Shown one piece after another: positions 9,000 through 46,967 of a stretch of DNA of 64,000 nt (positions are counted from its first letter, which is position 1; each line of letters opens with the position of its first letter). The translations under genes and the position numbers were made by a program. The notes beneath the pieces were generated by a model. The model was not told where the DNA came from, did not search any database, and worked only from the letters and a program-made list of their open reading frames with translations. This stretch comes from an uncultured bacterium (GTDB lineage Bacteria > Methylomirabilota > Methylomirabilia > Rokubacteriales > DASRDR01), in the NCBI GenBank assembly GCA_964416315.1, contig CAYQDR010000003.1, positions 46,031 through 110,030 of the forward strand. Reading direction: 5' to 3'.

Positions 9000-9142
9000 G
9001 GCCAGGCTGCCCACCGAGGATCGAGCCCCTCTCGGCTCACCCCGGGCCGTGATTTGGGTGTCGGAGCCGCGAGCTCGACCGCGATCGCCCGCAATTCCCA
9101 GAGTTGCGGAAGACGACTGAGAAACGGGCCCGGAGCCCGGGC

Positions 9143-10483
9143 CTACTCCCACATCGCGTCGAAGATGGAGCCGGCGAGCGTCGGGAAGACGTAGTGCATC
9201 GCGGCGAGATCCTGGCGCGTGAGCCCCCCGCGCATGGCGGCCGAAGCGACGTGGATCAGGTCCTCGGCCCCCGGACCGAGAATGTGGGCCCCAAGGAGCC
9301 GCCCGGTCGACGCCTCGGCCACCACCTTGACGAGGCCCTCGGTTTCCTCCCGCACCGCCGCCGCGGTGCTGTCCTCGAAGGGGACCCGGCTTACTGAGAC
9401 CTCGAGCCCCTGCCGCCGCGCCTCGGCCTCCGTGAGCCCGACCTGCCCGATCGCCGGGATCGTGAAGACGGCCGTGGGGAACCACCGGAGGTCCACCGCG
9501 CGCTGGTTGCCTCGGAGCGCGTTCTCCGCGACGAGGCGGCCCTCGTACCAGGCGACGGGGGTGTGCTGGTGCTGGCCCGTGACGTCGCCCGCGGCGTACA
9601 CATGCGCGGCCGTGGGTGACTGGCGGAACTCGTTGACCTTCACCCCGCCCCGCTCCACCGCCACGCCGGCGGCCTCGAGGCCGAGGCCGGCGGTGTTCGG
9701 GGGGCGGCCGGTCGCCACCAGGACGACGTCGCCCGGGAACCGCTCGGCGCGCCCCCCGACCTCCGCCTCGACCGTGCGGTCGGCGCCGATCCGCGTGACG
9801 CGCGCCCCCGTCCGGACCTCGAGCCCGGCGTCCCGGGCGATCGCGAGCAGCGCCTCGCGGATCTCGTCGTCCAGGGCCGGCAGGACGTGCGGCCCCGACT
9901 GGAGCACGGTGACGCGCGTCCCGGCCCGCGCAAAGGCGAAGCCGAGCTCCATCCCGATGTAGCCGCCGCCGACCACCACCATCCGCGCCGGCAGGGTGGC
10001 GTGGTCGAGCAACTCGTCGCTCGTCATGGCGTGCTCGATCCCGGGGATCGGCGGCCGGGCCGGGGAGGAGCCGGTCGCGATGATGACGCGCTCGGCCGTG
10101 ACCCGGCGCCCGGCGACGTCGAGCTCGCGCGGCCCGCGGAACGTCGCGCGGCCGCGGAGAACCGCGATCCCCTGCCGCTCGAAGCCCGTGTCCTTCCCGG
10201 CCGACCACTCCGCCACCAGGCGGTTCTTCCGCGCGATGATGGCACCCCAATCGAGCCCCAGCCCCGCCGTCCCCGTCACGCCCAGCCCGGCCGCGCGGCG
10301 CGCCCGCCAGGCCAGCTCCACGGTGCTGACCAGCACCTTTTTCGGGATTCAGCCGCGCCCGAGGCAGGTTCCCGCGAAGCCGTCCGCCTCCACGAGCGCC
10401 GTCCGGGCGCCGAGCCCGACGGCCGTCCGGGCGGCGAAGCCCCCCGCCGTTCCCGCGCCGATCACCAGGAGATCGTAGTCCAC
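9143..10483 (-). CDS. MerA-like flavoprotein disulfide reductase; in-frame TGA (10351-10349) at the second active-site Cys, candidate selenoprotein
   Basis: MDYDLLVIGAGTAGG FAD-binding fold. Active site GTCLGRG-[TGA]-IPKK where the family has CxxxxC. Blocks IIATGSSPARPPIPGI, LVATGRPPNT and VYAAGD resemble MerA-core blocks as recalled. Strong SD GGAGAGGAGG 5 nt before GTG 10483. The ORF track shows only the post-TGA part, 9143-10336. Confidence 0.7.
10322..10337 (-). ncRNA. SECIS-like stem-loop GGUGCU-GGUC-AGCACC, 11 nt downstream of the UGA at 10351
   Basis: Perfect 6-bp stem with GGUC loop. Spacing and loop match the E. coli fdhF SECIS apical hairpin as I recall it. Confidence 0.55.
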
Positions 10484-10523: not shown

Positions 10524-10706
10524 TCAGCCTCGTCCCTCCACGGGCACGAGGGCCCAGGCGCCGAACTCGTAGGTGACGCGCTGCCGCACTCCGTGGCACT
10601 CGATCAGGTCACCGGGCCGCACGTCGTCCGGCAGATGCACGACGTGCTCCCCCACCGCACAGCTCGCCGTCTTGACCGGGCTGACCGTCCACACGCCGTC
10701 CGTCAC
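10524..10706 (-). CDS. hypothetical 60-aa protein between the redoxin and reductase genes
   Basis: ORF MTDGVWTVSPVKTASCAVGEHVVHLPDDVRPGDLIECHGV... No family recognised. Could be a small beta-barrel protein or non-coding. Confidence 0.3.
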   Translation of the reverse strand: MTDGVWTVSPVKTASCAVGEHVVHLPDDVRPGDLIECHGVRQRVTYEFGAWALVPVEGRG

Positions 10707-10824: not shown

Positions 10825-11061
10825 CTACGCGAGCCCGAGCAGCCGCTCGAGCCTGCCCCGGTCGAAGCCCACCACGGCCTCGCCGTCGATGACGGTGACC
10901 GGCGTGGCGCGGTAACCGAGCGCCTGGAGCTCCGCCAGGGCGGCTGGGTCCTGACGGATGTTCCGGTCGGTGAACACGACGCCTTTCTGAGAAAGAAACT
11001 CTTTCTCCGCCTGGCAGGCCCCTCAGCCAGGCTGCGTGTAGACGACGACCGACTTGGCCAT
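10825..11061 (-). CDS. NrdH/glutaredoxin-like redoxin with UxxC motif (TGA at 11025-11023), candidate selenoprotein
   Basis: MAKSVVVYTQPG-[TGA]-GACQAEKEFL..TPVTVIDGE..VGF is the NrdH/Grx fold with the first Cys of CxxC replaced by TGA. SD GGAGGG before ATG 11061. Hairpin GAGAAAG-AGUUU-CUUUCUC at 10989-11007, 15 nt after the UGA. Confidence 0.65.
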
Positions 11062-11227
11062 CACGCCCTCCGTTCGCTCACGCGGCGTTCCCCGCCAGGA
11101 GGCCGCCGAAGATCCGGCGGCCGAGCTTGAACGCTTCGCCCACCGTGGCGCCGGCCCCGGGCACGTCGGGGTGCGCGTCGTGCCAGGCCCGCAGGTGCTC
11201 TTCCGACCGGAAGAAGTTGAGCGTCGT

Positions 11228-11758
11228 TCAGAGCGAGGTGAAAACCTTCCGGTCGATCTCCCCCCGCTTCCCGACCCAGACCATGACCCCGTCGGCACCC
11301 GGACCCGGTCCCTCCGCGTCGGCCTCGAACTCGAGGGGCCCCCCGCAGTGGTGGCAGCGCGAGCGGATCTCCATGCACTGGCCCAGCATCGCCGCCACTC
11401 CGAGCGCGTCGATGGCGCAGCACGCGTACCGGCGCCGGCCGCCCGGGAGCACCACCGCGAACGCCGTCGGCACGGCGGCGAAGGGGTAGGCGAGCTCCAC
11501 CCGCCCCTCGCGGACAAGGATCAGGTCCCGCTCGTCCAGGCCCGCGACCTCCTCCAGCAGGCCATCGCGGGGTCGATCCGGAAACCAGGCCACGATCTCA
11601 TCGATCGGGATCGCTCCCTCCCGCTCGACAAACCGCCGGAGGATGCGCTGGAAGACCGCGTCCAGGCGCTCGGCCCGGCGGGTGGCCCAGCGCGCCTCGA
11701 GCTCCGGATCTACCAGCTCCTCGGCGGTCTTGATCTCCAGCGCCACCCGAGGCCTCAT
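11228..11758 (-). CDS. MerB-family (organomercurial lyase-like) paralogue
   Basis: YACCAIDALG and SRCHHCGG align with the MerB WCAxDTL and CxHxHFF catalytic regions. ATG 11758 directly abuts the merE stop. Confidence 0.6.
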   Translation of the reverse strand: MRPRVALEIKTAEELVDPELEARWATRRAERLDAVFQRILRRFVEREGAIPIDEIVAWFPDRPRDGLLEEVAGLDERDLILVREGRVELAYPFAAVPTAFAVVLPGGRRRYACCAIDALGVAAMLGQCMEIRSRCHHCGGPLEFEADAEGPGPGADGVMVWVGKRGEIDRKVFTSL

Positions 11759-12075
11759 GCGGCTGGACGGGGGGAGCCGCCCACCCCATTGGATTCGGCG
11801 ACCGGGGGCCGCGATTCGCCCGCCGTCCGGGGCGTCCCGCGGTCCGGCTCCCCCCAGGCCCGCAACCCGCGGAGCAGCGAGCCGGCGAAGACGACCGTCA
11901 TGACCGCGAAGGCCGCCGCCGCGTGCTCCCGGAGGACGGCGGCCAGGGCCGTGCCGCCCAACAGGGCGAGCGCCAGCGGAAGGTGGCACGGGCACGTGAC
12001 GGCGGCCACCCCGAGCAGGAGGTACGCCTTCCGTGGCCGCCCCGCCTCCGGTACGCCCCGGGTCATCGCCCGCAT
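11755..12075 (-). CDS. merE: MerE-like mercury transporter
   Basis: LLGVAAVTCPCHLPLALALLGGTALAAV matches the MerE LTCPCHLP transmembrane signature as recalled. Alternative ATG at 12066. Confidence 0.65.
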   Translation of the reverse strand: MRAMTRGVPEAGRPRKAYLLLGVAAVTCPCHLPLALALLGGTALAAVLREHAAAAFAVMTVVFAGSLLRGLRAWGEPDRGTPRTAGESRPPVAESNGVGGSPRPAA

Positions 12076-12082
12076 CGCACGC

Positions 12083-12724
12083 TCACGAACCCGGCAGCCG
12101 CCGCGCTTTGAAGCCCGCCGCTGCGATCGCCTCGACCATGCGCTCGATGGTAACCGAGGCGGGGTCGTACGTCACCCACGCCTTCGCCTGCTCGAAGCTC
12201 ACCTCGGCGTGCTGGATGCCCGGGAGCCCTGCCAGGGCTCGCTCGACCACGGTGGGTCAGGACCCTCAGGTCATCCCGTCCACCTGCAGGATCACGCGCG
12301 CCGCGACGACCGCGCCATGGCCGCCGGACGGACTCGGCCCGGTCCCCGCCTCGTGCTCCATCGCCGCGATTCCGCCCCACGACGCGATGAGCCGTGCCGT
12401 TCGGTCAGGGAACGCCGTCAGGACGACGGCAGCGGCGAGCACAACCGTCGAGATCCCCAGGAGCACTCCGTTGACACGGCCGCCGGCCATGGCGCATCCG
12501 AGCCGCTGGCAGCGCCGCCGTTCCCGCAGGTGGAGGTACCAGCCGAGGCCCGTCCCGAGGACCCCCGCGGGGATGAAGACGTACGTGTACCGCATCGTCA
12601 CCGCCATGAATGCCCCACTCCCCAGGCCGAGCACGACGACCGCGAGGGGGAAGAGGCAGCAGAGCGAGGCAACCGACGCGGACGCCATCGCCACGATGCT
12701 CGACCTCACGTCTGCGAGCTTCAC
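12083..12724 (-). CDS. MerT-like membrane protein fused to a MerP-like HMA domain; metal-binding motif reads GMT-[TGA]-GS-[TGA]
   Basis: TM1 with vicinal CC (ASLCCLFPLAVVVLGLG), loop Cys pair CQRLGC, third TM, then an HMA fold ILQVDGMT-U-GS-U-PTVVERALAGLPGIQHAEVSF..AWVTYDP..IERMVEAIAAAGF. TGA codons at 12268-12266 and 12259-12257. Hairpin GAGCCC-UGGCA-GGGCUC at 12224-12240. Start GTG 12724 overlaps the anti-sigma stop. Confidence 0.6.
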
Positions 12725-13368
12725 GGCCGCACCTGGTCCACCGTCGCGAGGCGTGCGAGCCAGAGGCCGGCGAAGGCCCAGAGCACCGCCCCGAGCCCCA
12801 GCCCCGAGACGAAGGCCACCTGGAGGGTGGGCGCGAACTCGCGGCACTGGATGATCACGTAGGGCGCCAGAATCCCGAGGAACAGCACGCCCGCTTCGAC
12901 CGCCCGGACCGCGGTCCCGTGCCGCAACAGCCACACGCCCAGCGCGACCGGTATCCCGTACGCAGCCCCGGCGACGAGATACGGCAGCGCATCGACGTCG
13001 GACCCCTGGAGCGCCTGCCGACACCAGGCGACCAGGAGGGGATACGGCACGAGCAGCGACAGCACGAGCGAAGCCGCGATCCCGATCAAGGCAGCCTGGG
13101 CGGCTGCGGCCCACCCGCGAAGCGCCAGGACGGACTCCCGGAGGGCGCGGCGGCGTACCTCGCGCAGCACCCGGGTCCTCACCGCGGCCGGGGGCGGCGC
13201 CGCCCCAGGCCAGCGGTCCAGGAGCGCCCAGGTCCCCCGGAGCGCCTCCAGCTCGGCGCGGCAATCCGCGCACGTCTCGAGATGCGACGCCACGTCCCCG
13301 GCCGGGGAGTCCTCCGCACCCCCAAGGCCGACGTCAAGCAGCCGGTCCCTGACCCCATCGCACTCCAT
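12721..13368 (-). CDS. membrane-bound ZAS-type (zinc-binding) anti-sigma factor
   Basis: C3...H29-x3-C33-x2-C36 ZAS motif (MECDG...SHLETCADC) followed by several transmembrane helices. Confidence 0.65.
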   Translation of the reverse strand: MECDGVRDRLLDVGLGGAEDSPAGDVASHLETCADCRAELEALRGTWALLDRWPGAAPPPAAVRTRVLREVRRRALRESVLALRGWAAAAQAALIGIAASLVLSLLVPYPLLVAWCRQALQGSDVDALPYLVAGAAYGIPVALGVWLLRHGTAVRAVEAGVLFLGILAPYVIIQCREFAPTLQVAFVSGLGLGAVLWAFAGLWLARLATVDQVRP

Positions 13369-13411: not shown

Positions 13412-13963
13412 TTACAGCTCGCCGAGCAGATCGCGGAGCCGGCGAAGGGCCCGGTGGAGGGTGACCCGCACCGCGCCCGGGGACGCCCCGATGATCTCCG
13501 CGACCTCCTCGGCGCTCAATCCGCCGAACCGGCAGAGGAGGACGACCTCGCGGTGGGAGGGGGGAAGCTCCAGCATCGCCGCCTGGAATCGCTCGCTGAG
13601 CTCGCCCGCCTCGGCCCGCTCCAGCGGCGTCGCGCTCGGATCGGCCAGCGTCTCGGCGAGCTCGCCGCCCTCCAGCACTCGCGCTCCGCTCCGTCGCCGG
13701 AACTCGTCCACGACCAGGTTTCGGGCGATGGTGAAGAGCCAGGTCCTGAACGCGGCGCTGGGACGCCAGCCCTCGCGGTGTGCGAACACCCGGAGAAACG
13801 TCTCCTGGAGGAGGTCCTCCGCCTTCCGCCGCTCGCCGAGGGACCGGAGCAGGAAGGTGAACACCCTTCGATGGTGCCGGTCGTAGAGCGCCTCGAAGGC
13901 TGTCGGGCTCCCCGCCCGCACCTCGTCCATGAGCACTTCGTCCGAGCGAGTCTCGCGCGGCAT
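13412..13963 (-). CDS. ECF-type RNA polymerase sigma-70 factor
   Basis: Sigma-70 region 2 and region 4 (FLLRSLGERRKAEDLLQETFLRVF ... LSAEEVAEIIGASPGAVRVTLHRALRRL). Start ATG at M17 of the listed ORF. Confidence 0.8.
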   Translation of the reverse strand: MPRETRSDEVLMDEVRAGSPTAFEALYDRHHRRVFTFLLRSLGERRKAEDLLQETFLRVFAHREGWRPSAAFRTWLFTIARNLVVDEFRRRSGARVLEGGELAETLADPSATPLERAEAGELSERFQAAMLELPPSHREVVLLCRFGGLSAEEVAEIIGASPGAVRVTLHRALRRLRDLLGEL

Positions 13964-14102
13964 GGCGAATCGGGGCGAAACGTCTTGAGTATACGCAGCG
14001 GCCAACCCCACGTCCGCGGGCGGAGATCGTCGCCGAGAATCCCTGGGCGCCCCGGACCCCTCAGAAGGCGTGAAGGGCAGACAGGACGAAGGAGGTCACG
14101 TC

Positions 14103-15908: not shown

Positions 15909-16850
15909 CTAGCGGGAGCTGGTCCGGGTCGTCGGCACGCGGCCCCGCCACCGGTGCGTCGCGCCGCGCGGCTCCGGCACCGGCTCGCCGAAGCCGAACC
16001 GGAGGAGCCGCCGCGCGTCGAGGAAGGACAGCCCCCGGGTCTCGGCCCCGAGGATGATCAACAGCAGCCGGTGCCCGGCCTTCCCGGCCGCCACCGCGAG
16101 GTTGTAGCCGGCCTCGAGGCTGTAGCCGGTCTTCAGCGCCGTCACGCCCCCCGGGTCCCGGAAGAGCGGCACGCGGCGCCGGTAGACCCGCCCGCGCCAC
16201 GCAAACTCGTCCTCGCCGAGGAGTTCGCGGCTGTCCGGGAAGTCGGTCAGGAGCCGCTCCGCGAGCTCGGCCATATCGCGGGCCGTGGAGCGCTGCGCCG
16301 GGTCCGGCAGTCCGTGCGGGTTCGCGAAGACGCTCTGGCCGAGGCCCATGCGCCGGGCCGTGGCGTTCATGCGGACGACGAATGCCTCCTCGCTCCCCGC
16401 GACGTGCTCGGCCACCGCGGTGGCCGCATCGTTCGCCGACGCGATCGCCACGCCCGCCAGGAGGACGTCGAACGGGACGACCCGGCCGGTCACGAGCCCC
16501 ATGCGGAAGGGTGGCGTGTACGCCGCGTTCGGGCTCACGATCACCGGGTCCCCGAGGCGCACCTTGCCCGCGCGGAGATCCTCGTGGGCGAGGTAGAGCG
16601 TCATCAGCTTGACGAGGCTGGCCGGAGCGCGATCGCTCTCCGCGTTCTTCGCGTAGAGGACGCGCCCCGTGTCGAGGTCCACGAGCAGTCCGGCCTCGGC
16701 CGTGACCGCAGGGGGCGGCGGCTCGGCGCCGATCGCCGGGGAGACGGCGAGGAGGATCAGGCCCAGGCCCGCAGCCAGGACGCGGCGGACAGGCTCAGCC
16801 CGCGGGACCGGCAATGCGCAGCTCGGCAGGAACGGGGAGGTCTCGGACAC
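15909..16850 (-). CDS. serine-type D-Ala-D-Ala carboxypeptidase (PBP5/6 family)
   Basis: SLVKLMT (SxxK), SANDAA (SxN) and KTG motifs. Signal peptide. The true start may be internal, around 16790. Confidence 0.75.
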   Translation of the reverse strand: MSETSPFLPSCALPVPRAEPVRRVLAAGLGLILLAVSPAIGAEPPPPAVTAEAGLLVDLDTGRVLYAKNAESDRAPASLVKLMTLYLAHEDLRAGKVRLGDPVIVSPNAAYTPPFRMGLVTGRVVPFDVLLAGVAIASANDAATAVAEHVAGSEEAFVVRMNATARRMGLGQSVFANPHGLPDPAQRSTARDMAELAERLLTDFPDSRELLGEDEFAWRGRVYRRRVPLFRDPGGVTALKTGYSLEAGYNLAVAAGKAGHRLLLIILGAETRGLSFLDARRLLRFGFGEPVPEPRGATHRWRGRVPTTRTSSR

Positions 16851-17116
16851 GGAGGTAGAGGTTCAGGCGGGCCTTGGCGGCGGGAGAGAGCCCCGGCGGC
16901 TCGGTGTCACCCCACCTGAGCCAGCCGTCCAGGCACGAGCCGATCGCGCCGTGACCGCGGGCGAGCGGACAGCGGTGCTCGAGGCAGCGTCCCCCGCTGA
17001 TCGCGCACACCGGAATGCCGGCCACGTCCTCTCCCCTCGCGATGTCGGAGCCCGCGATACGACGGCGCGGTCCCCGCCATTGTAGGCGGAGAGCCCTCCA
17101 AATCAAGAAAAATGGC

Positions 17117-17389
17117 TCAGCGGAGGGCGTTCTTGAGGGCGCGGGAGGGGCGGAAGCGGGCGACCCGGGCCGCCTGGATCGTCATGGGCTGCCCGGTCCG
17201 GGGGTTTCGCCCCTTGCGGCCCTTCCGGCGCGTCACGGTGAACGTGCCGAACCCGACGAGGGTGACGGCCTCGCCCCGGCGGAGGCTCGTCCGGATGCCC
17301 GCGAGGCAGCCGTCGAGGGCCCTCTGTGCCGCAGCCTTGGTCAGCCCGGAGGCGGCCGCCATCCTCGCGACGAGGTCTGCTTTCGTCAT
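17117..17389 (-). CDS. HU-family DNA-binding protein
   Basis: MTKADLVARMA...GFGTFTVTRRKGRKGRNPRTGQPMTI is the HU/IHF fold. ATG lies inside the longer ORF. Confidence 0.85.
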   Translation of the reverse strand: MTKADLVARMAAASGLTKAAAQRALDGCLAGIRTSLRRGEAVTLVGFGTFTVTRRKGRKGRNPRTGQPMTIQAARVARFRPSRALKNALR

Positions 17390-17531
17390 CGGTGCCCTCC
17401 CGACCGTCCGAGGGAATGGCCTGGCGGCTGCGGTGTCCGGGGACCGCTCCGGGCACGAAGGCGGCCGCACTCTAGCAGAGGGCGCGACGGGGCGTCAAGG
17501 CGCGCCGGGGCCTCGTGCTAAGGTATGGGCG

Positions 17532-18377
17532 ATGCGACGGCGCCTCCTGGCACTCGGGGCCGCCCTCGTCCTCCTCGGCGGCCCGCGGGCCGGCGGGACC
17601 GAGCTCGACGAGGCCCCGGTCCCGGTGGTGACGCTCGAGGCCCTGCCCCTCGACGTCCCCACGGCGAGCCTGCCCGAGGCCGCCCGCGCCCGGGCCGAAG
17701 GCGTCCTGGCACGGACCATCTTCGCCCAGCGCGTGAGCGGGATCCGCCACCGGAGCCGCGAGGCCGTCTTCCACTTCCTGGTCGAGCACCCGGACTTCGC
17801 CGCGACGATCGTCCGCGCGCTCCGGCTCGGCGAATACCGGGTGATCCCGGTGGAGGACGGCTACTGGGGGGACGACAACCGCGGCGCGAGCGGCGTGATC
17901 CGCGTTCTCTACTCCGACGAGGGGCGGCGCCTCTTCCACCTCGCCGGGCGCTACGACCGGCGGTTCCTCCCCACGATCGAGGGGGAGATCCTCCTCCTGC
18001 TCGAGTACCGCCACGAGGAGGACGGAGGGGGCGGGAGCGTCGTCGAGTCGAGCCTCACCGGTCACCTCAGGCTCGACACTCCGCTCGCGGGCGCCCTTGC
18101 GCAGACCGTCGCCGCCCTCTCGCGGCCGATGGTCGAGCGGACCGTCGAGCGGAAGGTCCGCCGGTTCTTCAACATGGTGGCCCGCTTGAGCCGATGGGCC
18201 CACGACGAGCCGGACCAGCTCGCCGCCGTCCTGGACGGGCACCCGGAGGTCCCGGACGGACCCCTGCTCGCCCGATTCCGAGCGATCCTCCTCGCGGACC
18301 GTCCGCCGGCGTGGGCGCGCGCGCCGTTCCGCCTGGAAGTGGCCGACCCGCTCGGAACGCCCGCCGAGCCCGAGTGA
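17532..18377 (+). CDS. secreted hypothetical protein
   Basis: Signal peptide MRRRLLALGAALVLLGG. No family recognised. Confidence 0.5.
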   Translation: MRRRLLALGAALVLLGGPRAGGTELDEAPVPVVTLEALPLDVPTASLPEAARARAEGVLARTIFAQRVSGIRHRSREAVFHFLVEHPDFAATIVRALRLGEYRVIPVEDGYWGDDNRGASGVIRVLYSDEGRRLFHLAGRYDRRFLPTIEGEILLLLEYRHEEDGGGGSVVESSLTGHLRLDTPLAGALAQTVAALSRPMVERTVERKVRRFFNMVARLSRWAHDEPDQLAAVLDGHPEVPDGPLLARFRAILLADRPPAWARAPFRLEVADPLGTPAEPE

Positions 18378-18571
18378 CGTCGGCGGTCCTCGCGGGCCTC
18401 CTCGCGTTCGTGGCACTCGCCGTCGCGGCCGGCCTCTTCTACCTCTTCCGCGTCCGGCTGCAGCTCTGCCCGCACTGCAGCTGGGTGGTGAAGAGGGTCC
18501 AGCACGGATGGGCGCGCTGCCCGCGCTGCCACAAGCAGTACGCGCGGCGCACGAAGCTCCGCCCCCACTGA
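18374..18571 (+). CDS. small membrane-anchored zinc-ribbon protein
   Basis: GTGA overlap with the upstream stop. One TM helix, then CPHC..x12..CPRC. Confidence 0.4.
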   Translation: MTSAVLAGLLAFVALAVAAGLFYLFRVRLQLCPHCSWVVKRVQHGWARCPRCHKQYARRTKLRPH

Positions 18572-18659
18572 CCCGGCTCCCGCTTCCCGCCGCGGGGCAG
18601 AGGGGGGAGGGTGAGGGACCCTGTCAACGGCAAGAAACCCGCCGGGGGTCAGGTCATCC

Positions 18660-18752
18660 GCGCGCTCCTGAGCGAACCGCTCCGAGCGCGGGCTTCGCCC
18701 GCGCAATCCCTCCTGGGGGAAGTTCGGAAGGGGGGCGAAGCCCCCCTCCGAG
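18660..18752. repeat. family A multi-hairpin intergenic repeat, copy 2
   Basis: Collinear with 2790-2897 at about 90% identity: gcgctcctgagcgaaccgctccgagcgcgggcttcgcccgcgcaatccctcctggggga...ggggggcgaagcccccctccgagg. Confidence 0.6.
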
Positions 18753-18755
18753 GAT

Positions 18756-19274
18756 CTACATCCCCATCGCGCTCCGCGCCTCGTCCATCACCGCGTCGGT
18801 GATGGTCCCGTAGCCGCGCTCCCGGGCGAAGCGCTCGATCGCCTGCTTCGCCATCGGGCGGATGAAGGCGGGGATCCGATCGATGCGCGCCTCGGCTTCC
18901 GGCGTCCAGGCCGGGGCGTCCCGCGACGCCTCCGCGTCGGCGCCCGGGATCATCGCGGCGAAGGGGCAGCCGGGACCCTCCGCCGGCGCCGCGGGCGCCT
19001 CGCCCGGGCGCGGCGCGGCGTCGTCGACCAGGGCGCCGTCGCGCTGCCGCGCGAGGTTCGCGCGCACCTGCTCGAACGGCGGCGCCTCGCCCGTCGCGCC
19101 GCCGACCTTGACGCCGAGCGAGCGGACGAGCTGCGTCTCCCAGGGATTCGTGAGCATGGCGATGCGGTGCCCGCAGGCGGGGCAGGCGAAGGTCACGGTG
19201 AGCGAGCCCTCGTCCGGGCCGGCCGTGGCCTGGAGCCGCATGGCCGCGTCGCACGTGATGCAGAGGAACTTCAT
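18756..19274 (-). CDS. zinc-ribbon protein with C-terminal PCP-reductase-like domain
   Basis: N-terminal CITC..CPAC. C-terminal AWTPEAEARIDRIPAFIRPMAKQAIERFARERGY resembles the protochlorophyllide-reductase 57 kDa subunit-like (PCP_red) domain. Confidence 0.5.
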   Translation of the reverse strand: MKFLCITCDAAMRLQATAGPDEGSLTVTFACPACGHRIAMLTNPWETQLVRSLGVKVGGATGEAPPFEQVRANLARQRDGALVDDAAPRPGEAPAAPAEGPGCPFAAMIPGADAEASRDAPAWTPEAEARIDRIPAFIRPMAKQAIERFARERGYGTITDAVMDEARSAMGM

Positions 19275-19317
19275 GCGCGCACGCTCCTGACCATCATGGC
19301 GCGCCGGATGCGCTGGA

Positions 19318-19953
19318 TCATTTCGGGCTGGCGCCGGGCGTCACGCCGGTCGGGCCCAGGATCCGCCGCGGCCCCGCCGTCCCCGCGGAGAGGATGACGC
19401 GGATCCCCTCCTCGATCGTGAGGCCGGTGGAGATCACCGAGTCGCGCGGCACCAGGATGATGTCGCCGAGGTAGAGGTGGTTCGTGGGAACGTAGACGGT
19501 GACGAGGTCCTCCGGCTTGGCGCCCTCCACCCGGACGTCGCTCGTGCGGAAGCCGTAGGCGTAGATTCCCTCGCGCGGGTGCTCCACGATGACGAACTCC
19601 CGGAAGCCGCGCTCGCGGCGCGGCGTGAACGCCTCGACGAGCTGCTTCACCGCCGGGTAGACGCGCCCGAAGACGGGCAGGCGGAGGAGGAGCAGGCGCT
19701 CGGCCCAAGTCAGGATGCGCCGGCCGACCACGTTCGTCGCGATCACGCCCATCACGAAGATGATGACGACCGCCGTCACGAACCCGAGCGCGGGAACGGA
19801 TCGACCCAGGATCCGCTCGTAGAGGGGGGAGAGGAAGCCGTCCACCTGCTGGTAGAAGATCCAGAGGACCCAGGCGGTGAGGACGACGGGGACCGTGACG
19901 AAGAAGCCGGTGATGAACCGGACCTTGAACCAGGACTGGATCCGCTGCTTCAT
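19318..19953 (-). CDS. DUF502-family membrane protein
   Basis: MKQRIQSWFKVRFITGFFVTVPVVLTAWVLW N-terminus and DUF502 core. Confidence 0.65.
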   Translation of the reverse strand: MKQRIQSWFKVRFITGFFVTVPVVLTAWVLWIFYQQVDGFLSPLYERILGRSVPALGFVTAVVIIFVMGVIATNVVGRRILTWAERLLLLRLPVFGRVYPAVKQLVEAFTPRRERGFREFVIVEHPREGIYAYGFRTSDVRVEGAKPEDLVTVYVPTNHLYLGDIILVPRDSVISTGLTIEEGIRVILSAGTAGPRRILGPTGVTPGASPK

Positions 19954-42639: not shown

Positions 42640-44500
42640 GCTTACCGATGATCTCTCGGCGTCAAGCATGCGCAGCGCCAGGATAGCGGACCGTGCCGAA
42701 CAACCGATGCAGCCCGAGCCCCCTCAGCCAGCCGAACGACCACCGGGAGATCGCCGCGTGCCGGTCCCGCAGACCGTGACGCCGGGCCAGAAACAGCCCG
42801 AGCCGTTGCCGCACGTAGTGATCGATCTGGTTGAACTTCAGGGTGGCATTCCCAGCCGCGCGATGACGACCCGCACGTCCTTCACCCCGCTGTGCCGCGC
42901 GTCCGTCAGCTCTCGAATGCGAGCCCCGAAGCCGCTTCATGCTCCTCGGCGACGGCCATCGCTGCAAAAACATCCGGCCGGGATACCGCACCGACCGGCA
43001 CTTCTTCAGCCGACATCCGAGGAACTCGAAGCCCTCCTGCCCGCCCCCGAGCGCCACCAGCCGCGTCTTCTCCGGATGCGCCTCCAATCAGCCCCACCCG
43101 CCTGAGCGCCTCCCGCGCCTGCCCCTCGGTGCGACAGAGCACCACGAGATCGTCGGCGTAGCGAACCAACACGCCGAGCCCCGCGCACCGCTGCTGCCAG
43201 ATCCGATCGAGCCCATGCCGGGAGATGTTCGAGAGCAGCGGCGAGATTACCCCACCCTGCGGCGTCCCCACCACCGTCGCCTCTCGACGCCCTTCCTCCA
43301 GCACCCCGGCCTTCAGCCATCGCCGGATCAGCTTCAGCACCCGCCGGTCCGACACCCGCCGCCCCACTTCCCCCATCAGCCGGTCGTGGTCGATGCGGCC
43401 GAAGTAGTCCTGAATGTCGACCTCTACCACATGATCGTGCCCCTGGTTCGCTGTGACCCGAATGGTCTCCAGCGCCTCCGTGGCGCTTCGCTTCGGCCGG
43501 AACCCGTAGGACACCGGCAGAAAATCGGCCTCGAAGAGCGGCTCGATCACCAGCTTGGTCGCCATCTGCACGACCCGGTCCCGGACTGTCGGAATGCCCA
43601 ACGGCCGTCGCCGTCCATCCGCCTTCGGGATGTACCGCCGCTCCACCGGTGCCGGTCGGTACCGCCCAGCCTTGAGGTCGGCCTGGATCTCGTGAAGAAA
43701 CCCCTCGACCCCCCGCTGCTCAATGGCCGCGATCGTCTCGCCGTCCACCCCCGCAGCGCCCCGATTCGCTCGCACCCCGCGCCACGCTTCCCACAGGACG
43801 TCACTCCTGTAGATCCGGTCGTACAGCGCGTGGAACCGCCGCCCCCGACTCCGCTTGGCCGCACGCCACAGCGCCCGCTGGAGTTCTCGCACTTTGCCGT
43901 CCGGGTCGTTGGAGCTTGCGCTCATGCCCTCGCGCTTACCCCCAGGCGGACGCATGACCAAAGCAGGGGCCCTTCCCTCCAGGCGATTGTCTCGCCCTTC
44001 CCCGGTACTCCGACCCCCTCGGACGCCCTCCCGACGCCCCGCCGTTTCGGACTCGCCTTATCGACGTGGCCGTGCTCTGACTTGAGCCGTCGGGGAGGGC
44101 CTCTCCAGTTCCGCACCGGGCCATGGACACGTGCCGCTCCCCGTACCCCGGAGGGGTCCAGCGCCGCGCCGATCCTTACGCGCTGTCTGTGGCCTTCGCC
44201 GTGACATGCCCGGCTCGGCCCCCTCTGCCTTTCGGCTGATAATCTGACGAGGCGGCAGGATTCACGTGATGTTGCGGCCCGCGCCCTCGCTCCCTCCGTA
44301 GAGGCTCTTGACGCCCTGCTCAGCGTCGAGGCTCTCACCTCGCCGCCAGGGCCTGCTACTGAGCGCATCGGCGCTTACTCAGGCGGGACTTCCACCCGCA
44401 GGTCCGGTGCAGCTTGGCTGGACGCAGCACGGGAACAGCATACCACTCGCTCCCCTGGACTGGACCCCAAGGGCGCCGTCCGTGGGTGATCCAGGATCCG
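42640..44500 (-). mobile_element. group II intron (boundaries approximate) with degenerate intron-encoded protein
   Basis: Intron-encoded protein has RT motifs [30 protein letters not shown] and YADDLVV. The maturase/X domain [11 protein letters not shown]...NQIDHYVRQRL continues in a different frame. About 550 nt of non-coding 5' sequence fits domains I-III. Confidence 0.55.
42662..43925 (-). pseudogene. group II intron RT/maturase with frameshift between RT and X domains
   Basis: RT domain in frame of ORF 42906-43961 (start ATG 43925). X domain in frame of ORF 42662-43087. Confidence 0.55.
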
Positions 44501-44509
44501 GAGGGTTGC

Positions 44510-46231
44510 TCAAAGCAGCGGCGGCACGTACGCCTGGCGCTTGACGTCGAGGAGGCCGCGGGCTGTGAGGCGGAGCGCCGGGATGGCGGTGAAGGTCAGC
44601 GTCTGGAGGGTCAGCAAGGGGCGCGGGAGCCGACAGCCGAGGGCGCGCGCCGCCTCCTCGATCGCCTCCAGTCCGCGCGCGACCTCGCGGAGGGGCAGAT
44701 CCGAGGCCACGCCGCCGAGCGGGAGCGACAGGTCCGCGCGCACGGCGCCGGTGCCATCCACGACCGCGAGGCCGCCTCGCAGCTCCACCACTCGGCGCAG
44801 GGCCGCGCTCAACGCCTCGGGGGAGGCGCCGAGGACGACGAGGTCCGCCGTGTCGAAGGAGACCGTCGAGGCGAACGCGCCCTCGCGGAGCCCGAAGCCC
44901 CGGACGATCCCCAGTGCGCGGCGCCCCGCGACGCGGCGATCCAGCGCCGCCGCGACGAGGCAGTCCCGCCCGGGATCGGCGACGACGGCACCGTCCCGCA
45001 CGGGGAGGGTCACCGCGTCCTCCGCGGTCAGGATGTCGCCCGCGATCCGGATCACCCGCACCCGCGCCGTCGGCCCCGGGGCCGTGAGCCGCAGCGTCGC
45101 CGGCTCGAGCGGCCCGGCGCACAGGCCGGCGTAAACGCCCGCCGGCAGGACGGCCGGCTCGAGGGGCGCCAGGCACTGCCCCTCGCGGGCGACGACGCGG
45201 CCCCGCGCGACGACGACCTCCGGACGCACCGTCCGGAGGCCCGGCAGCAACACGAAGTCCGCGAAGCGCCCGGGCGCGATCCCCCCGAGGTCGCCGTCGA
45301 GCCGGTAGTGCTCGGCGACGTTCAGGCTCGCCATCCGGTACGCCGTGACGGGCGGGATGCCGAACTCGATCGCCTTCTGGACGATCCCGTCCATGTAGCC
45401 GTGGGCAAGGAGGTCGGCCGGCCAGACGGCGTCCGAGGCGAGTGCCGCGCGCCGGAAGTCCACGCCGTCGTGGCGGACCCCCGCAACGGCCGCGAGGTCG
45501 CGGCGCACCGAGCCCTCGCGCACGAACACGAACATCCCGAGCCGGAGGCGCTCGAGCGCCTCGGCGGCCGTGATCGGCTCGTGGCAGGAGCCGACGCCAG
45601 CCCCCACGTACGCGGCGAGCTTCGCGCCGCGGGCCCCCGCCGAGTGGCCCTCCACGGTCTTGCCGAGCACTCGGGCCCGCTCGATGAGCCCGCCGAGCCG
45701 TTCGGGCTCCGGGAGGAGGCGGTGCCAGTAGACCTCGCCGAGGCCCAGCACGGCCGGGTCGTCGAGGAGCGCCCGCATTTCGACCTCCCCGATGACCGGA
45801 GCCCCCGTGCCGTCGTCCGTCGAGAGGAACGAGATGACCGGCGCCGTCGCGAAGGCGTGGATCGGCTGCGCGCGGAGACAGTCGAGGAACCAGCGGGCGC
45901 CCGCCGACCCGAGCGCGGAGGTGAGCTGCCCCATCTCGGTGACCAGGGCCGTGAGCCCGCGCGGGATCGCCTCGCGCAGCAGCTCGGGGAGGCTCACCAG
46001 CGTGTCCAGGTGGGTGTGGCCGTCGATGAAGCCGGGCACGAGGACGTGCCCCGCGGCGTCGAGCCGCGCCGTCGCCGGCCCGGCGAGCCCCCCGAGGTCG
46101 GGTCCCGTGGCGGCCACCCGCTCGCCCGCGACCGCGACGTCCCAGCGGATGAGCTCGCCCGTGTAGACGTTGACGACCGTCGCGCCCGTGACGAGCAGAT
46201 CGGCGGGCGCCTCGCCCAGGGCGACCCGCAT
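44510..46231 (-). CDS. ade: adenine deaminase
   Basis: FIDGHTHLD metal-binding motif and amidohydrolase fold. Full-length match to the adenine deaminase family. ATG 46231. Confidence 0.8.
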   Translation of the reverse strand: MRVALGEAPADLLVTGATVVNVYTGELIRWDVAVAGERVAATGPDLGGLAGPATARLDAAGHVLVPGFIDGHTHLDTLVSLPELLREAIPRGLTALVTEMGQLTSALGSAGARWFLDCLRAQPIHAFATAPVISFLSTDDGTGAPVIGEVEMRALLDDPAVLGLGEVYWHRLLPEPERLGGLIERARVLGKTVEGHSAGARGAKLAAYVGAGVGSCHEPITAAEALERLRLGMFVFVREGSVRRDLAAVAGVRHDGVDFRRAALASDAVWPADLLAHGYMDGIVQKAIEFGIPPVTAYRMASLNVAEHYRLDGDLGGIAPGRFADFVLLPGLRTVRPEVVVARGRVVAREGQCLAPLEPAVLPAGVYAGLCAGPLEPATLRLTAPGPTARVRVIRIAGDILTAEDAVTLPVRDGAVVADPGRDCLVAAALDRRVAGRRALGIVRGFGLREGAFASTVSFDTADLVVLGASPEALSAALRRVVELRGGLAVVDGTGAVRADLSLPLGGVASDLPLREVARGLEAIEEAARALGCRLPRPLLTLQTLTFTAIPALRLTARGLLDVKRQAYVPPLL

Positions 46232-46248
46232 GAGGCGAGCCCGATCGC

Positions 46249-46821
46249 TCACGCGCGTGTGATCAGGAGCGTCCAGTTCCGCCGCCGCGCCCAGCTCGCT
46301 TCGAACGCCGCGTAGGAGGCCACGCGGTAGGGCGTAGTCCCCGAGTGGAGGACGACGACGCCGGCCCGGTCGTCGTAGCCCAGGAGCACGGCGAAGTGCG
46401 GAACCGGGTAGCCCGGAAGGCCGAGGTCCTGGAAGACGATCAGCGGTCGGCCCCGCCGCAGCTCGTCCCGCACGCGGTCGAGGGTCCCCTGGAAGGCGCG
46501 CGCCTGGAAGCCGCGACGGCGCGCGTAGAACTCGAGGTCGAGGTTCAGCGTGCCCCGGATCGAGGGGAGGTAGATCTCCCGGGCGATCTCGTCGTGGTCC
46601 ACGGCCGCCCCGTAGAACCGGAGGACCATGGCCAGCGCGGCCGGGCCGCACTGGAACTCCTCCTGGGCGATGAAGGGGACGCCGGTGATCAGATGACCGT
46701 GGCCGGCCGCGACGTCGCGTCGCACGTCGTCGAGGCCCGGGCGCACGCAGGCCGCGGCGCCGAGGAGGATCGCGACCAGGAGCGCGCGGACGCGAGGATT
46801 CCCTTGAATCGCTCCGCGCAT
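46249..46821 (-). CDS. secreted C39-like (papain-fold) peptidase domain protein
   Basis: Signal peptide, QCGPAALAMVL catalytic Cys context, downstream His. Confidence 0.55.
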   Translation of the reverse strand: MRGAIQGNPRVRALLVAILLGAAACVRPGLDDVRRDVAAGHGHLITGVPFIAQEEFQCGPAALAMVLRFYGAAVDHDEIAREIYLPSIRGTLNLDLEFYARRRGFQARAFQGTLDRVRDELRRGRPLIVFQDLGLPGYPVPHFAVLLGYDDRAGVVVLHSGTTPYRVASYAAFEASWARRRNWTLLITRA

Positions 46822-46850
46822 CGCCCTTACTATAGCACCCGGGCCACGCC

Positions 46851-46967
46851 ATGGTCGGGCAGCGCGACGCCTATCTGTGCTGGGTCTGCGGTGCCGTGAT
46901 GCGGGAGATCAAGTGCAAGATCGTCTGCCCGCATTGCGGCTACATGCGGGATTGTTCTGACCCGTAG
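46851..46967 (+). CDS. 38-aa zinc-ribbon peptide
   Basis: MVGQRDAYLCWVCGAVMREIKCKIVCPHCGYMRDCSDP. Below the ORF-track size cutoff. Confidence 0.35.
   Translation: MVGQRDAYLCWVCGAVMREIKCKIVCPHCGYMRDCSDP

Follow-up and report, generated by a model that had tools for sequence, protein, structure and literature searches.

What is the role of a flavoprotein reductase that carries selenocysteine (Sec, U in motifs) in its active site and is encoded directly after a set of mercury-resistance-like genes? This question is raised by a 64,000-nucleotide stretch of contig CAYQDR010000003.1 from an uncultured Rokubacteriales bacterium (GenBank assembly GCA_964416315.1; the whole stretch is called the window below), in which positions 9143..10483 of the minus strand encode a Sec-containing class-I flavoprotein reductase of 446 codons (including Sec45). 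A first-pass annotation had placed the gene correctly at these coordinates, although without its minus strand, and had described the product as a relative of the mercuric reductase MerA that lacks the accessory parts of that enzyme. Our own reading, to which we would give a probability of roughly 45%, is that the product is a Cys40-Sec45 class-I selenoreductase that belongs to its own Rokubacteria clade, acts on a small thiophilic substrate and is the only candidate for Hg(II) reduction at this locus. The annotation had named a separate canonical merA as a circumstance that would speak against such a role, and neither a merA nor a second flavoprotein reductase gene of any kind was found in the 64-kb window.

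The ends of the gene are well defined. The start codon is a GTG at 10483 and the stop codon is a TAG (9145-9143); the protein begins with MDYDLLVIGAGTAG, which is already the FAD-binding Rossmann fold, and as no start codon precedes 10483 in the open frame, which is closed upstream by an in-frame stop, there is no room for an N-terminal HMA/NmerA extension (the annotation had already claimed that NmerA is absent). At the other end the protein closes with ...MHYVFPTLAGSIFDAMWE, 13 residues past Phe433. The corresponding tail is 26 residues long after Tyr605 of Bacillus MerA and 11 residues long after the catalytic His of Escherichia coli Gor, so the entire MerA tail is missing here, and not only its cysteines. 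Cys40 is the sole cysteine and Sec45 the sole Sec of the protein, with neither Cys nor Sec past residue 45, which confirms that the C-terminal vicinal cysteine pair is lacking. Pfam models Pyr_redox_2 (210.7 bits) and Pyr_redox_dim (104 bits) give the protein a class-I architecture, in which Rossmann domains for FAD and NAD(P)H are followed by a domain for dimerisation, with the CxxxxC position in the FAD domain and Cys40-x4-Sec45 as the single redox centre.

That a TGA lies within this active site is the first point to be settled. The in-frame TGA is codon 45 (10349..10351, minus strand; assigned from its conservation and the alignment) and falls in GTCLGRG-U-IPKK, at the second position of the class-I CxxxxC redox motif; the first position, which is the interchange position of the redox pair, is the TGC of Cys40 (codon 40, 10364..10366, minus strand; assigned from the alignment and the cysteine count). 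Our orthologue set has 17 loci from other genomes (L001-L017, of which L001 and L008 are on the same contig; another locus, L018, is a C-terminal fragment without the Sec site), and these orthologues align over residues 1-446 of the reductase, across the TGA. The TGA is found at exactly codon 45 in 15 out of 16 intact loci (57-93% identity), with the protein conserved on both sides, and a TGA kept at the same codon in 15 intact loci is not there by chance. The remaining intact locus (L015, from Desulfobacterota) is a Cys form with TGT at the Sec45 codon, and in L013 the gene is broken by a frameshift, with the TGA still present. In the L004 orthologue (JACPHL010000048.1, 10133-10150) both redox codons are TGA (GT-U-LGTG-U), and the protein is free of cysteine; this is a single metagenome-assembled genome (MAG), and a sequencing error is possible. 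TGA is not generally reassigned in the genome of the window, since four genes nearby end in TGA as a normal stop.

A hairpin resembling a selenocysteine insertion sequence (SECIS) element follows the TGA at a distance of 11 nt (GGUGCU-GGUC-AGCACC, 10322..10337, minus strand; seen in the centroid fold), and with its GGUC loop it is of the fdhF-like kind. All 16 TGA-carrying sequences have the same stem, down to four synonymous third-codon positions, whereas six out of seven flanking codons that we compared vary, and the hairpin is destroyed in the Cys form L015 (AGATTCTTGTAAGCACT). As the stem never varies, covariation is unavailable as evidence; folding energies of four post-UGA regions (single sequence) were not better than those of shuffled sequences in this 72% GC DNA, and the case for a SECIS therefore rests on the invariance at synonymous sites. 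A search of the window with Rfam at gathering thresholds reported no SECIS or other RNA at the reductase locus. Indirect support for Sec decoding comes from three other genes of the cluster, which carry TGA at Cys positions that are conserved in up to 22 loci.

The alternative is that the TGA is a genuine stop, so that the locus holds a pseudogene or two open reading frames (ORFs). Gene callers do split it, into ORFs of ∼44 and ∼397 aa, in every database record: the best 120 protein-database clusters are all truncated N-terminally at the TGA (380-401 aa, 85-90% query coverage) and are entered as, for example, dihydrolipoyl dehydrogenase family protein or glutathione reductase. The truncated product of the window itself has no entry in the contig index. 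The uninformative folding energies would fit a stop as well, as would the absence of any tRNA gene, and hence of a tRNA-Sec gene, from the 64-kb window (selA, selB and selD were not searched for). But a stop would have to be kept at an essential redox Cys position in 15 intact orthologues and in three more genes of the same cluster, next to a hairpin whose synonymous sites are held constant and which the Cys form does not have, and a 44-aa GxGxxG fragment cannot work apart from the rest of the FAD domain. We regard a genuine stop as hardly credible; judged by these comparisons of sequences, codon 45 is a Sec codon that is decoded with the downstream hairpin, and the annotation was right to put Sec in the active site.

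How close is this protein to MerA? Cys40 and Sec45 align with Cys207 and Cys212 of Bacillus MerA and with the redox pairs of Lpd, Gor and RclA. In glutathione reductase, lipoamide dehydrogenase and Tn501 MerA, the flavin-proximal thiol, engaged in charge transfer, belongs to the second cysteine of the pair, and interchange is the task of the first; given this enzymology and the alignment of Sec45 with the second cysteine, Sec45 takes the flavin-proximal position. The signature of MerA (in the numbering of the Bacillus RC607 enzyme) consists of Cys207/Cys212, Tyr264, Tyr605 or the Phe605 of archaeal enzymes, and the vicinal C-terminal Cys628/Cys629 (PMC8261052). The reductase has the first of these elements, as Cys40/Sec45, with Sec and not Cys at the second position, and it has an aromatic residue at 605, namely Phe433 (codon 9185..9187, minus strand), which corresponds to Tyr/Phe605 of MerA and to the catalytic His of disulfide reductases in the alignment and in the HMMER matches to 5x1y and 4dna; the flanking motif is F-P-T, not Y-L-T. 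Phe605 is the normal state in archaeal MerA (PMC8261052), and one orthologue (L017) has Tyr at the Phe433 position. The other two elements are missing: the position of Tyr264, which is Tyr in five out of five reference MerAs, is held by Lys97 (MAFFT) or Asp98 (HMMER against 5x1y), and there is no counterpart of Cys628/Cys629. The His-Glu dyad (HPxxxE) is also absent, with Phe433 and Gly438 (FPTLAG) in its place, whereas Lpd, Gor and RclA keep H...E. Going by these residues, the reductase is by membership neither a MerA (because Tyr264, the C-terminal Cys pair and NmerA are absent) nor a canonical disulfide reductase (because Phe433/Gly438 replace the His-Glu dyad).

The reductase scores below every curated NCBIfam cutoff, and no selenoprotein-specific model matched it. 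It reaches 352.8 bits with the MerA model TIGR02053 (cutoff 454.45) and 241.4 bits with the MerA model NF010311 (cutoff 600); its score with the lipoamide dehydrogenase model TIGR01350 (349.5 bits, cutoff 408.8) is about equal to the TIGR02053 score, and it is followed by those with the glutathione reductase model NF004776 (321.9 bits, cutoff 480) and the mycothione reductase model NF005884 (286.1 bits, cutoff 501). The best PDB match is Lysinibacillus MerA (5x1y, 276 bits), followed by glutathione reductase-like (249 bits) and DLD E3 (247 bits) structures, while GbsMerA (8K40) reaches 229 bits and the Tn501 MerA structure only 208 bits. MerA is thus the best-scoring characterised relative, and the term MerA-like, as used in the annotation, can be kept as a working analogy only.

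For the phylogeny, we used a neighbour-joining tree of 179 sequences, with Tn21-type, Bacillus, Xanthobacter and Desulfobacterota MerA, E. coli Lpd, Gor and RclA, and SthA as references. The reductase family forms its own clade with 100% bootstrap and falls outside the MerA clade, with all deeper nodes below 30%; its mean distances to the compared groups are 1.16-1.40. The phylogenetic check proposed in the annotation was whether the protein would fall within a clade of known substrate, and with the same limit on the deep nodes it does not. An exhaustive search of 1.84 billion cluster representatives gave one full-length representative of the family (583 bits), and the next match had 315 bits. 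In this sampling the family is a tight and separate clade, found chiefly in Rokubacteria/Methylomirabilota. It is very improbable that we are dealing with MerA proper after loss of its accessory domains: the top PDB match, the top NCBIfam model, the mer-like context and the aromatic residue at 605 all agree with such an origin, but the TIGR02053 score is below its cutoff and about equal to the score with the Lpd model, the tyrosine at 264 is a lysine, the Cys-Cys (CC) tail has gone together with the whole C-terminal extension, the family is about equally distant from all groups, and most of its members have no link to mer genes.

The nearest relatives outside the family (P0124-P0126, from loci L091-L095; mean distance 1.17) are also class-I proteins with Sec in the CxxxxC centre, and are also truncated in the databases. 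They differ in having Sec at the first (interchange) position (GGT-U-LNRGC), where the reductase of the window has a flavin-proximal Sec, and in keeping the dyad (HP[ST]xSE); several of them end in a C-terminal CCG. The genes of P0125 (L091-L093) are found in an ArsD / HesB-like / ArsA metalloid-resistance context and the gene of P0126 (L095) adjoins an ArsR-type regulator gene (P0124 is from L094). A more distant group of reductases, from Actinomycetota MAGs (L019 and L021), has GGT-U-PNYGC, again with Sec first, and E-L-T at the usual His/Tyr site.

Several well-known enzymes share parts of this design. Canonical MerA (Tn501/Tn21, Bacillus RC607) has the same fold, an FAD-adjacent redox pair and an aromatic residue instead of His at 605, but its Tyr264, its Cys628/629 relay, carried by a tail of ∼26 residues, and the NmerA that it often has are all missing here. 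High-Mr thioredoxin reductase belongs to the same superfamily and is a selenoprotein too, with its catalytic Sec at a great distance from the flavin, on a mobile GCUG tail at the C-terminus, a Cys-Cys pair at the flavin side and the His-Glu dyad retained; in the reductase of the window, Sec itself is flavin-proximal, and both the C-terminal redox tail (GCUG or CC) and the dyad are missing. The E. coli RclA / HOSCN-reductase type (NF040477, NF041853), often mis-annotated as mercuric reductase, is likewise short and without NmerA or CC tail, but it keeps the dyad (HPSMSES), has no Sec and scores only 230-238 bits against the reductase of the window. Among the 150 nearest cluster representatives at 50% identity, 53 are short, have Tyr or Phe for His and lack the CC tail; the absence of NmerA and of the CC tail is not unusual alone, and it is Sec and its flavin-proximal position that are new.

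The most useful comparison is with GbsMerA of Gelidibacter salicanalis (PDB 8K40/8K41), which reduces Hg(II) and confers Hg resistance in E. coli (PMC10587081). GbsMerA is also a short (∼450 aa) class-I enzyme without NmerA and without the C-terminal Cys-Cys (PMC10587081), and its dyad is replaced by Tyr437/Ser442 and its Tyr264 equivalent by Val96, two sites at which the reductase of the window has replacements as well. There are differences: the redox pair is Cys-Cys in GbsMerA and Cys-Sec here, the residue after the second redox position is Asp in GbsMerA and Ile here, the two proteins are in separate clades, and GbsMerA is encoded in an ArsR-MerT/P-MerA operon (PMC10587081), while the family of the window is mostly unlinked to mer genes. 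Nevertheless, as a short Hg(II) reductase from a mer operon that has neither NmerA, CC tail, dyad nor Tyr264 equivalent, GbsMerA is a precedent for the chemistry that we consider here.

In this chemistry, NAD(P)H would reduce the FAD, and FADH- would in turn reduce a Cys40-Sec45 selenenylsulfide to a thiol and a selenolate, the latter in charge-transfer contact with the flavin; thiol and selenolate would then bind a small thiophilic substrate and reduce it directly, with neither a relay site nor acid-base catalysis. For GbsMerA and RclA, a Tyr or His has been proposed to abstract a proton; since a selenolate is already ionised at neutral pH, such a residue might be dispensable here. The lack of auxiliary thiols, dyad and tail argues against ordinary disulfide exchange and against the reduction of folded proteins, and fits chemistry of the MerA/GbsMerA type. 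Hg(II) reduction by the reductase is plausible; that mercury is the substrate in the living cell we think somewhat less likely than not. The enzyme may also be of the selenol/disulfide type, the alternative that the annotation had offered.

The genes upstream of the reductase, on the same strand, bring mercury into consideration in the first place. Profile matches show the mer-like genes among them to be genuine Hg-type families, and together with the reductase the upstream genes make a cluster of four selenoprotein genes with five Sec codons (all coordinates that follow are on the minus strand). At the head of the cluster are genes for an extracytoplasmic function (ECF) sigma factor (13412..14011, start codon uncertain; Sigma70_r2, r4_2 and ECF models) and for a membrane anti-sigma factor with an H-x3-C-x2-C motif of the ZAS type (12721..13368; weak matches to anti-sigma models), and the module would be under the control of this sigma factor. 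They are followed by a gene for a MerT-like protein that carries, as a C-terminal fusion, an HMA domain with the motif GMT-U-GS-U (12083..12724; NF041115 with 92.2 bits, PF00403, and a partial match of 75.4 bits to the MerTP fusion model). Its two TGA codons are at 12268-12266 and 12259-12257, and the UxxU motif is kept in 11 further loci, with CxxU in L073. A MerE-like small membrane protein with a CPC motif (11755..12075) matches PF05052 above the cutoff (41.6 bits) and NF010310 with 59 bits. Next is a homologue of the organomercurial lyase MerB (11078..11758; PF03243, 95.9 bits) with Sec in TSL-U-TTLNFF; its TGA (11230-11228) is conserved in 22 loci (including L002, L003, L070-L087 and L096) with the motif (S/G)(L/Y)-U-TxLNFF, and by the MerB motif this Sec is the equivalent of the catalytic Cys159 of MerB. 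A 78-aa glutaredoxin-like selenoprotein of the YruB/NrdH type with PG-U-GAC (10825..11061; TIGR02196 with 68.9 bits, Uxx-star models, PF00462) has its TGA at 11025-11023, and wherever the motif was found in a module locus, it is kept as UxxC. The last gene (10524..10706) encodes a 60-aa Cys/His protein without a Pfam match, and its stop codon is 40 nt upstream of the reductase start. This protein accompanies the module in L002, L003, L096 and the metagenome loci described below, and no locus of sufficient length lacks it.

The module is also found elsewhere. A metagenome scan with the MerB-like protein collected 21 loci (L070-L090) with the gene order MerB-Grx-60aa-MerT/HMA and with the UxxC and UxxU motifs. 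Several of them have a divergent MerR-type regulator gene (C-x8-C-P), and L074 also has a serine recombinase gene. What these loci hold looks like a MerA-less, selenium-based mer module.

The annotation had pointed to the UxxC redoxin and the UxxU HMA domain as neighbours that might hand Hg(II) to the reductase in place of the C-terminal cysteine pair; both are indeed encoded nearby, and only the first of them is a plausible donor in the cytosol. The HMA domain follows the third hydrophobic segment of the MerT-like protein and, by hydropathy and the positive-inside rule, is on the opposite side of the membrane from the K/R-rich loop RERRRCQRLGC. It is probably a periplasmic, MerP-like domain, and on this topology it could not pass Hg(II) to a cytosolic reductase, so that we reject it as a substitute for NmerA. 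Hg(II) released by the Sec-containing MerB homologue or imported via MerT/MerE could instead reach the reductase through the cytosolic UxxC protein, the likely donor.

The same neighbour suggests another role, in which the reductase would recycle the UxxC glutaredoxin-like selenoprotein as a thioredoxin reductase does its substrate, and this selenoprotein would in turn service the Sec-containing MerB homologue and the transporter. Class-I reductases that act on proteins use an accessible auxiliary redox tail, for example GCUG or CC. The reductase of the window has no such tail, nor any Cys or Sec other than the pair in the redox centre by the flavin. A glutaredoxin-like gene is next to or near the reductase gene in the window, L002, L096 and L003, and one adjoins a canonical MerA gene in L015, but the UxxC redoxin is also kept in 21 module loci without the reductase, and most members of the family have no glutaredoxin-like neighbour. 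A MerA-like enzyme of Synechocystis is mentioned in PMC8261052, with a citation, as Grx1-dependent. Altogether we consider recycling of the redoxin improbable.

Does the reductase belong to the module at all? The module adjoins the reductase gene in the window and in three other loci, L002 (93% identity), L096 (83%) and L003 (80%), the last with a different internal gene order. As the module is directly upstream, on the same strand and ends 40 nt before the reductase start, co-transcription is probable. Our scan for promoters and terminators on the coding strand at the locus found none, and no common promoter was visible when the upstream regions of the orthologues were compared. A GC-rich hairpin (GCCCGG-GCTC-CGGGC, 9127-9142, minus strand) is located directly 3' of the reductase stop, but only three T follow and it fails the criteria of the terminator scan.

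Genomic contexts of the orthologues give a different picture of the gene. In Rokubacteria the family is at a conserved chromosomal site, in almost every genome sampled and usually without mer genes. The downstream synteny (genes for a GT2 glycosyltransferase, an SRPBCC protein, a nitroreductase-domain protein and an ACT protein) is common to loci with and without the module: L010 and L012, for example, keep it, and have upstream of the reductase genes for cytochromes, an AhpC-like protein and DUF302, or other unrelated genes. The neighbours are Trx2, a B3_4-domain gene and a transporter gene in another group of orthologues, and a pilin-like gene in L097. In one of the orthologous loci without mer genes (L062, 4436-4711), a 91-aa AhpC-TSA fragment is encoded among cytochrome c genes and is perhaps a further selenoprotein truncated at a TGA. 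We considered two ways in which the association with the module might be general and rejected both: the mer-linked reductases are not a separate paralogous subclade, since L004 nests with L003, and the module does not always travel with the reductase, since it is mostly found without it. The gene orders are most simply read as those of a chromosomal reductase gene that is conserved in Rokubacteria and has acquired, in a single sublineage, a mobile selenoprotein mer module without MerA as its neighbour.

Such a history leads to the main competitor of our reading, a housekeeping small-molecule reductase without a mercury role, next to which the module was simply inserted in one sublineage. Its substrate might be a low-Mr disulfide or selenenylsulfide, selenite-derived selenotrisulfide or selenocystine, feeding a very large selenoproteome; Methylomirabilota MAGs with up to 63 selenoprotein genes have been described (PMC13188914). 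The fixed chromosomal site with its downstream synteny regardless of the module, the unrelated upstream genes of most orthologues (Trx2/B3_4; cytochromes with AhpC and DUF302; a substrate-binding protein; the pilin-like gene), the interleaving of mer-linked and unlinked orthologues in the family tree, and the usual absence of the reductase from module loci all point this way. On the other hand, the protein lacks the His-Glu dyad with which characterised class-I disulfide reductases work, none of the neighbourhoods examined has sel genes or genes of selenium metabolism, the reductase is co-oriented and 40 nt after the module in four loci with two internal gene orders, and the data name no candidate substrate. 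We take a housekeeping role to be a real possibility, if not the one we would choose.

The observations that weigh against our preferred reading, a selenoreductase that is the candidate for Hg(II) reduction, can be brought together here. Out of 16 family loci examined, 12 have no mer genes nearby, and neither has L097. L004 has none within 10 kb, yet it groups with the mer-linked L003 (90% bootstrap), and the adjacency may therefore reflect a single insertion beside a housekeeping gene. Conversely, the reductase is found in none of the 21 metagenome module loci, including several with 2-5 kb of flank, and the promoter and terminator scan gave nothing in support of co-transcription. The Desulfobacterota contig L015 has, in addition to the Cys form of the family, a separate canonical mer operon 5 kb away (15925-19461), with genes for ArsR, MerT, MerP, a glutaredoxin-like protein (CAYC) and a 615-aa MerA that ends in SCCAT, has a Cys-rich zinc-ribbon/YHS-like N-terminus in place of HMA and has Phe at 605; the Cys form itself also has Phe at the 433 position, a caveat to the idea that the selenolate replaces a proton abstractor. 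Canonical MerA exists in some Rokubacteria (PMC8261052). The deep branches of the neighbour-joining tree have less than 20% support. Finally, Tyr437 of GbsMerA is reported to be essential, with Y437F inactive (PMC10587081), and the family of the window has Phe at this very place.

If the selenoreductase does reduce Hg(II), a wider scheme can be drawn in which the whole pathway runs on selenols: a UxxU MerP-like domain, a Sec-containing MerB, a UxxC carrier and a fixed, constitutive Sec-containing MerA analogue that would also serve, in trans, modules without a reductase. The much higher Hg affinity and the permanent ionisation of the selenolate would then replace NmerA, the Cys relay and the Tyr/His. 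We offer this scheme as speculation and think it unlikely in its full extent. Described counterparts of the module are the Sec-assisted organometallic (SAO) operon and other multi-selenoprotein metal operons, which likewise combine a Sec-containing MerB-like lyase, a Sec redoxin and Sec-containing metal-binding/transport proteins (bioRxiv 2022.07.06.499078; PMC13188914). SAO operons differ in that their lyase SaoL has a CU motif (the MerB homologue of the window scores 59 bits against a SaoL cutoff of 140), that transport is of the ABC type, that they are from anaerobic Firmicutes, and that they have no flavoprotein reductase selenoprotein.

The 2026 catalogue of 119 prokaryotic selenoprotein families has as FAD enzymes only the CoA-disulfide-reductase type and a sulfide:quinone reductase subtype (PMC13188914). 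A class-I reductase with CxxxxU or UxxxxC is absent from this catalogue (PMC13188914), and searches of other literature found none, although Haft & Tolstoy 2025 may mention it. Being absent from the 119 families, without an NCBIfam model and truncated at the TGA in its database entries, the family looks like an overlooked, and apparently uncatalogued, selenoprotein family. The reductase would be a natural example of an enzyme with selenolate-flavin charge transfer and no acid-base dyad, in contrast to thioredoxin reductase, with its Sec on a distal tail, and to the sister group, with its Sec at the interchange position. If it reduces Hg(II), selenium chemistry can replace the relay architecture of MerA, and signature-based surveys of merA miss the mercury reductase of a whole phylum, which bears on the long-standing question of Hg-Se antagonism and on how much environmental Hg is estimated to be reduced in soils and groundwater. 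Otherwise, it is still a redox enzyme conserved in a soil phylum that is abundant and uncultured.

One more observation concerns a different part of the window. Rfam identifies domains D1-D4 of a group II intron at 44267-44401 on the minus strand (RF02003, 90.5 bits), and an ORF upstream of this match on the same strand (44510-46870) could encode the intron protein.

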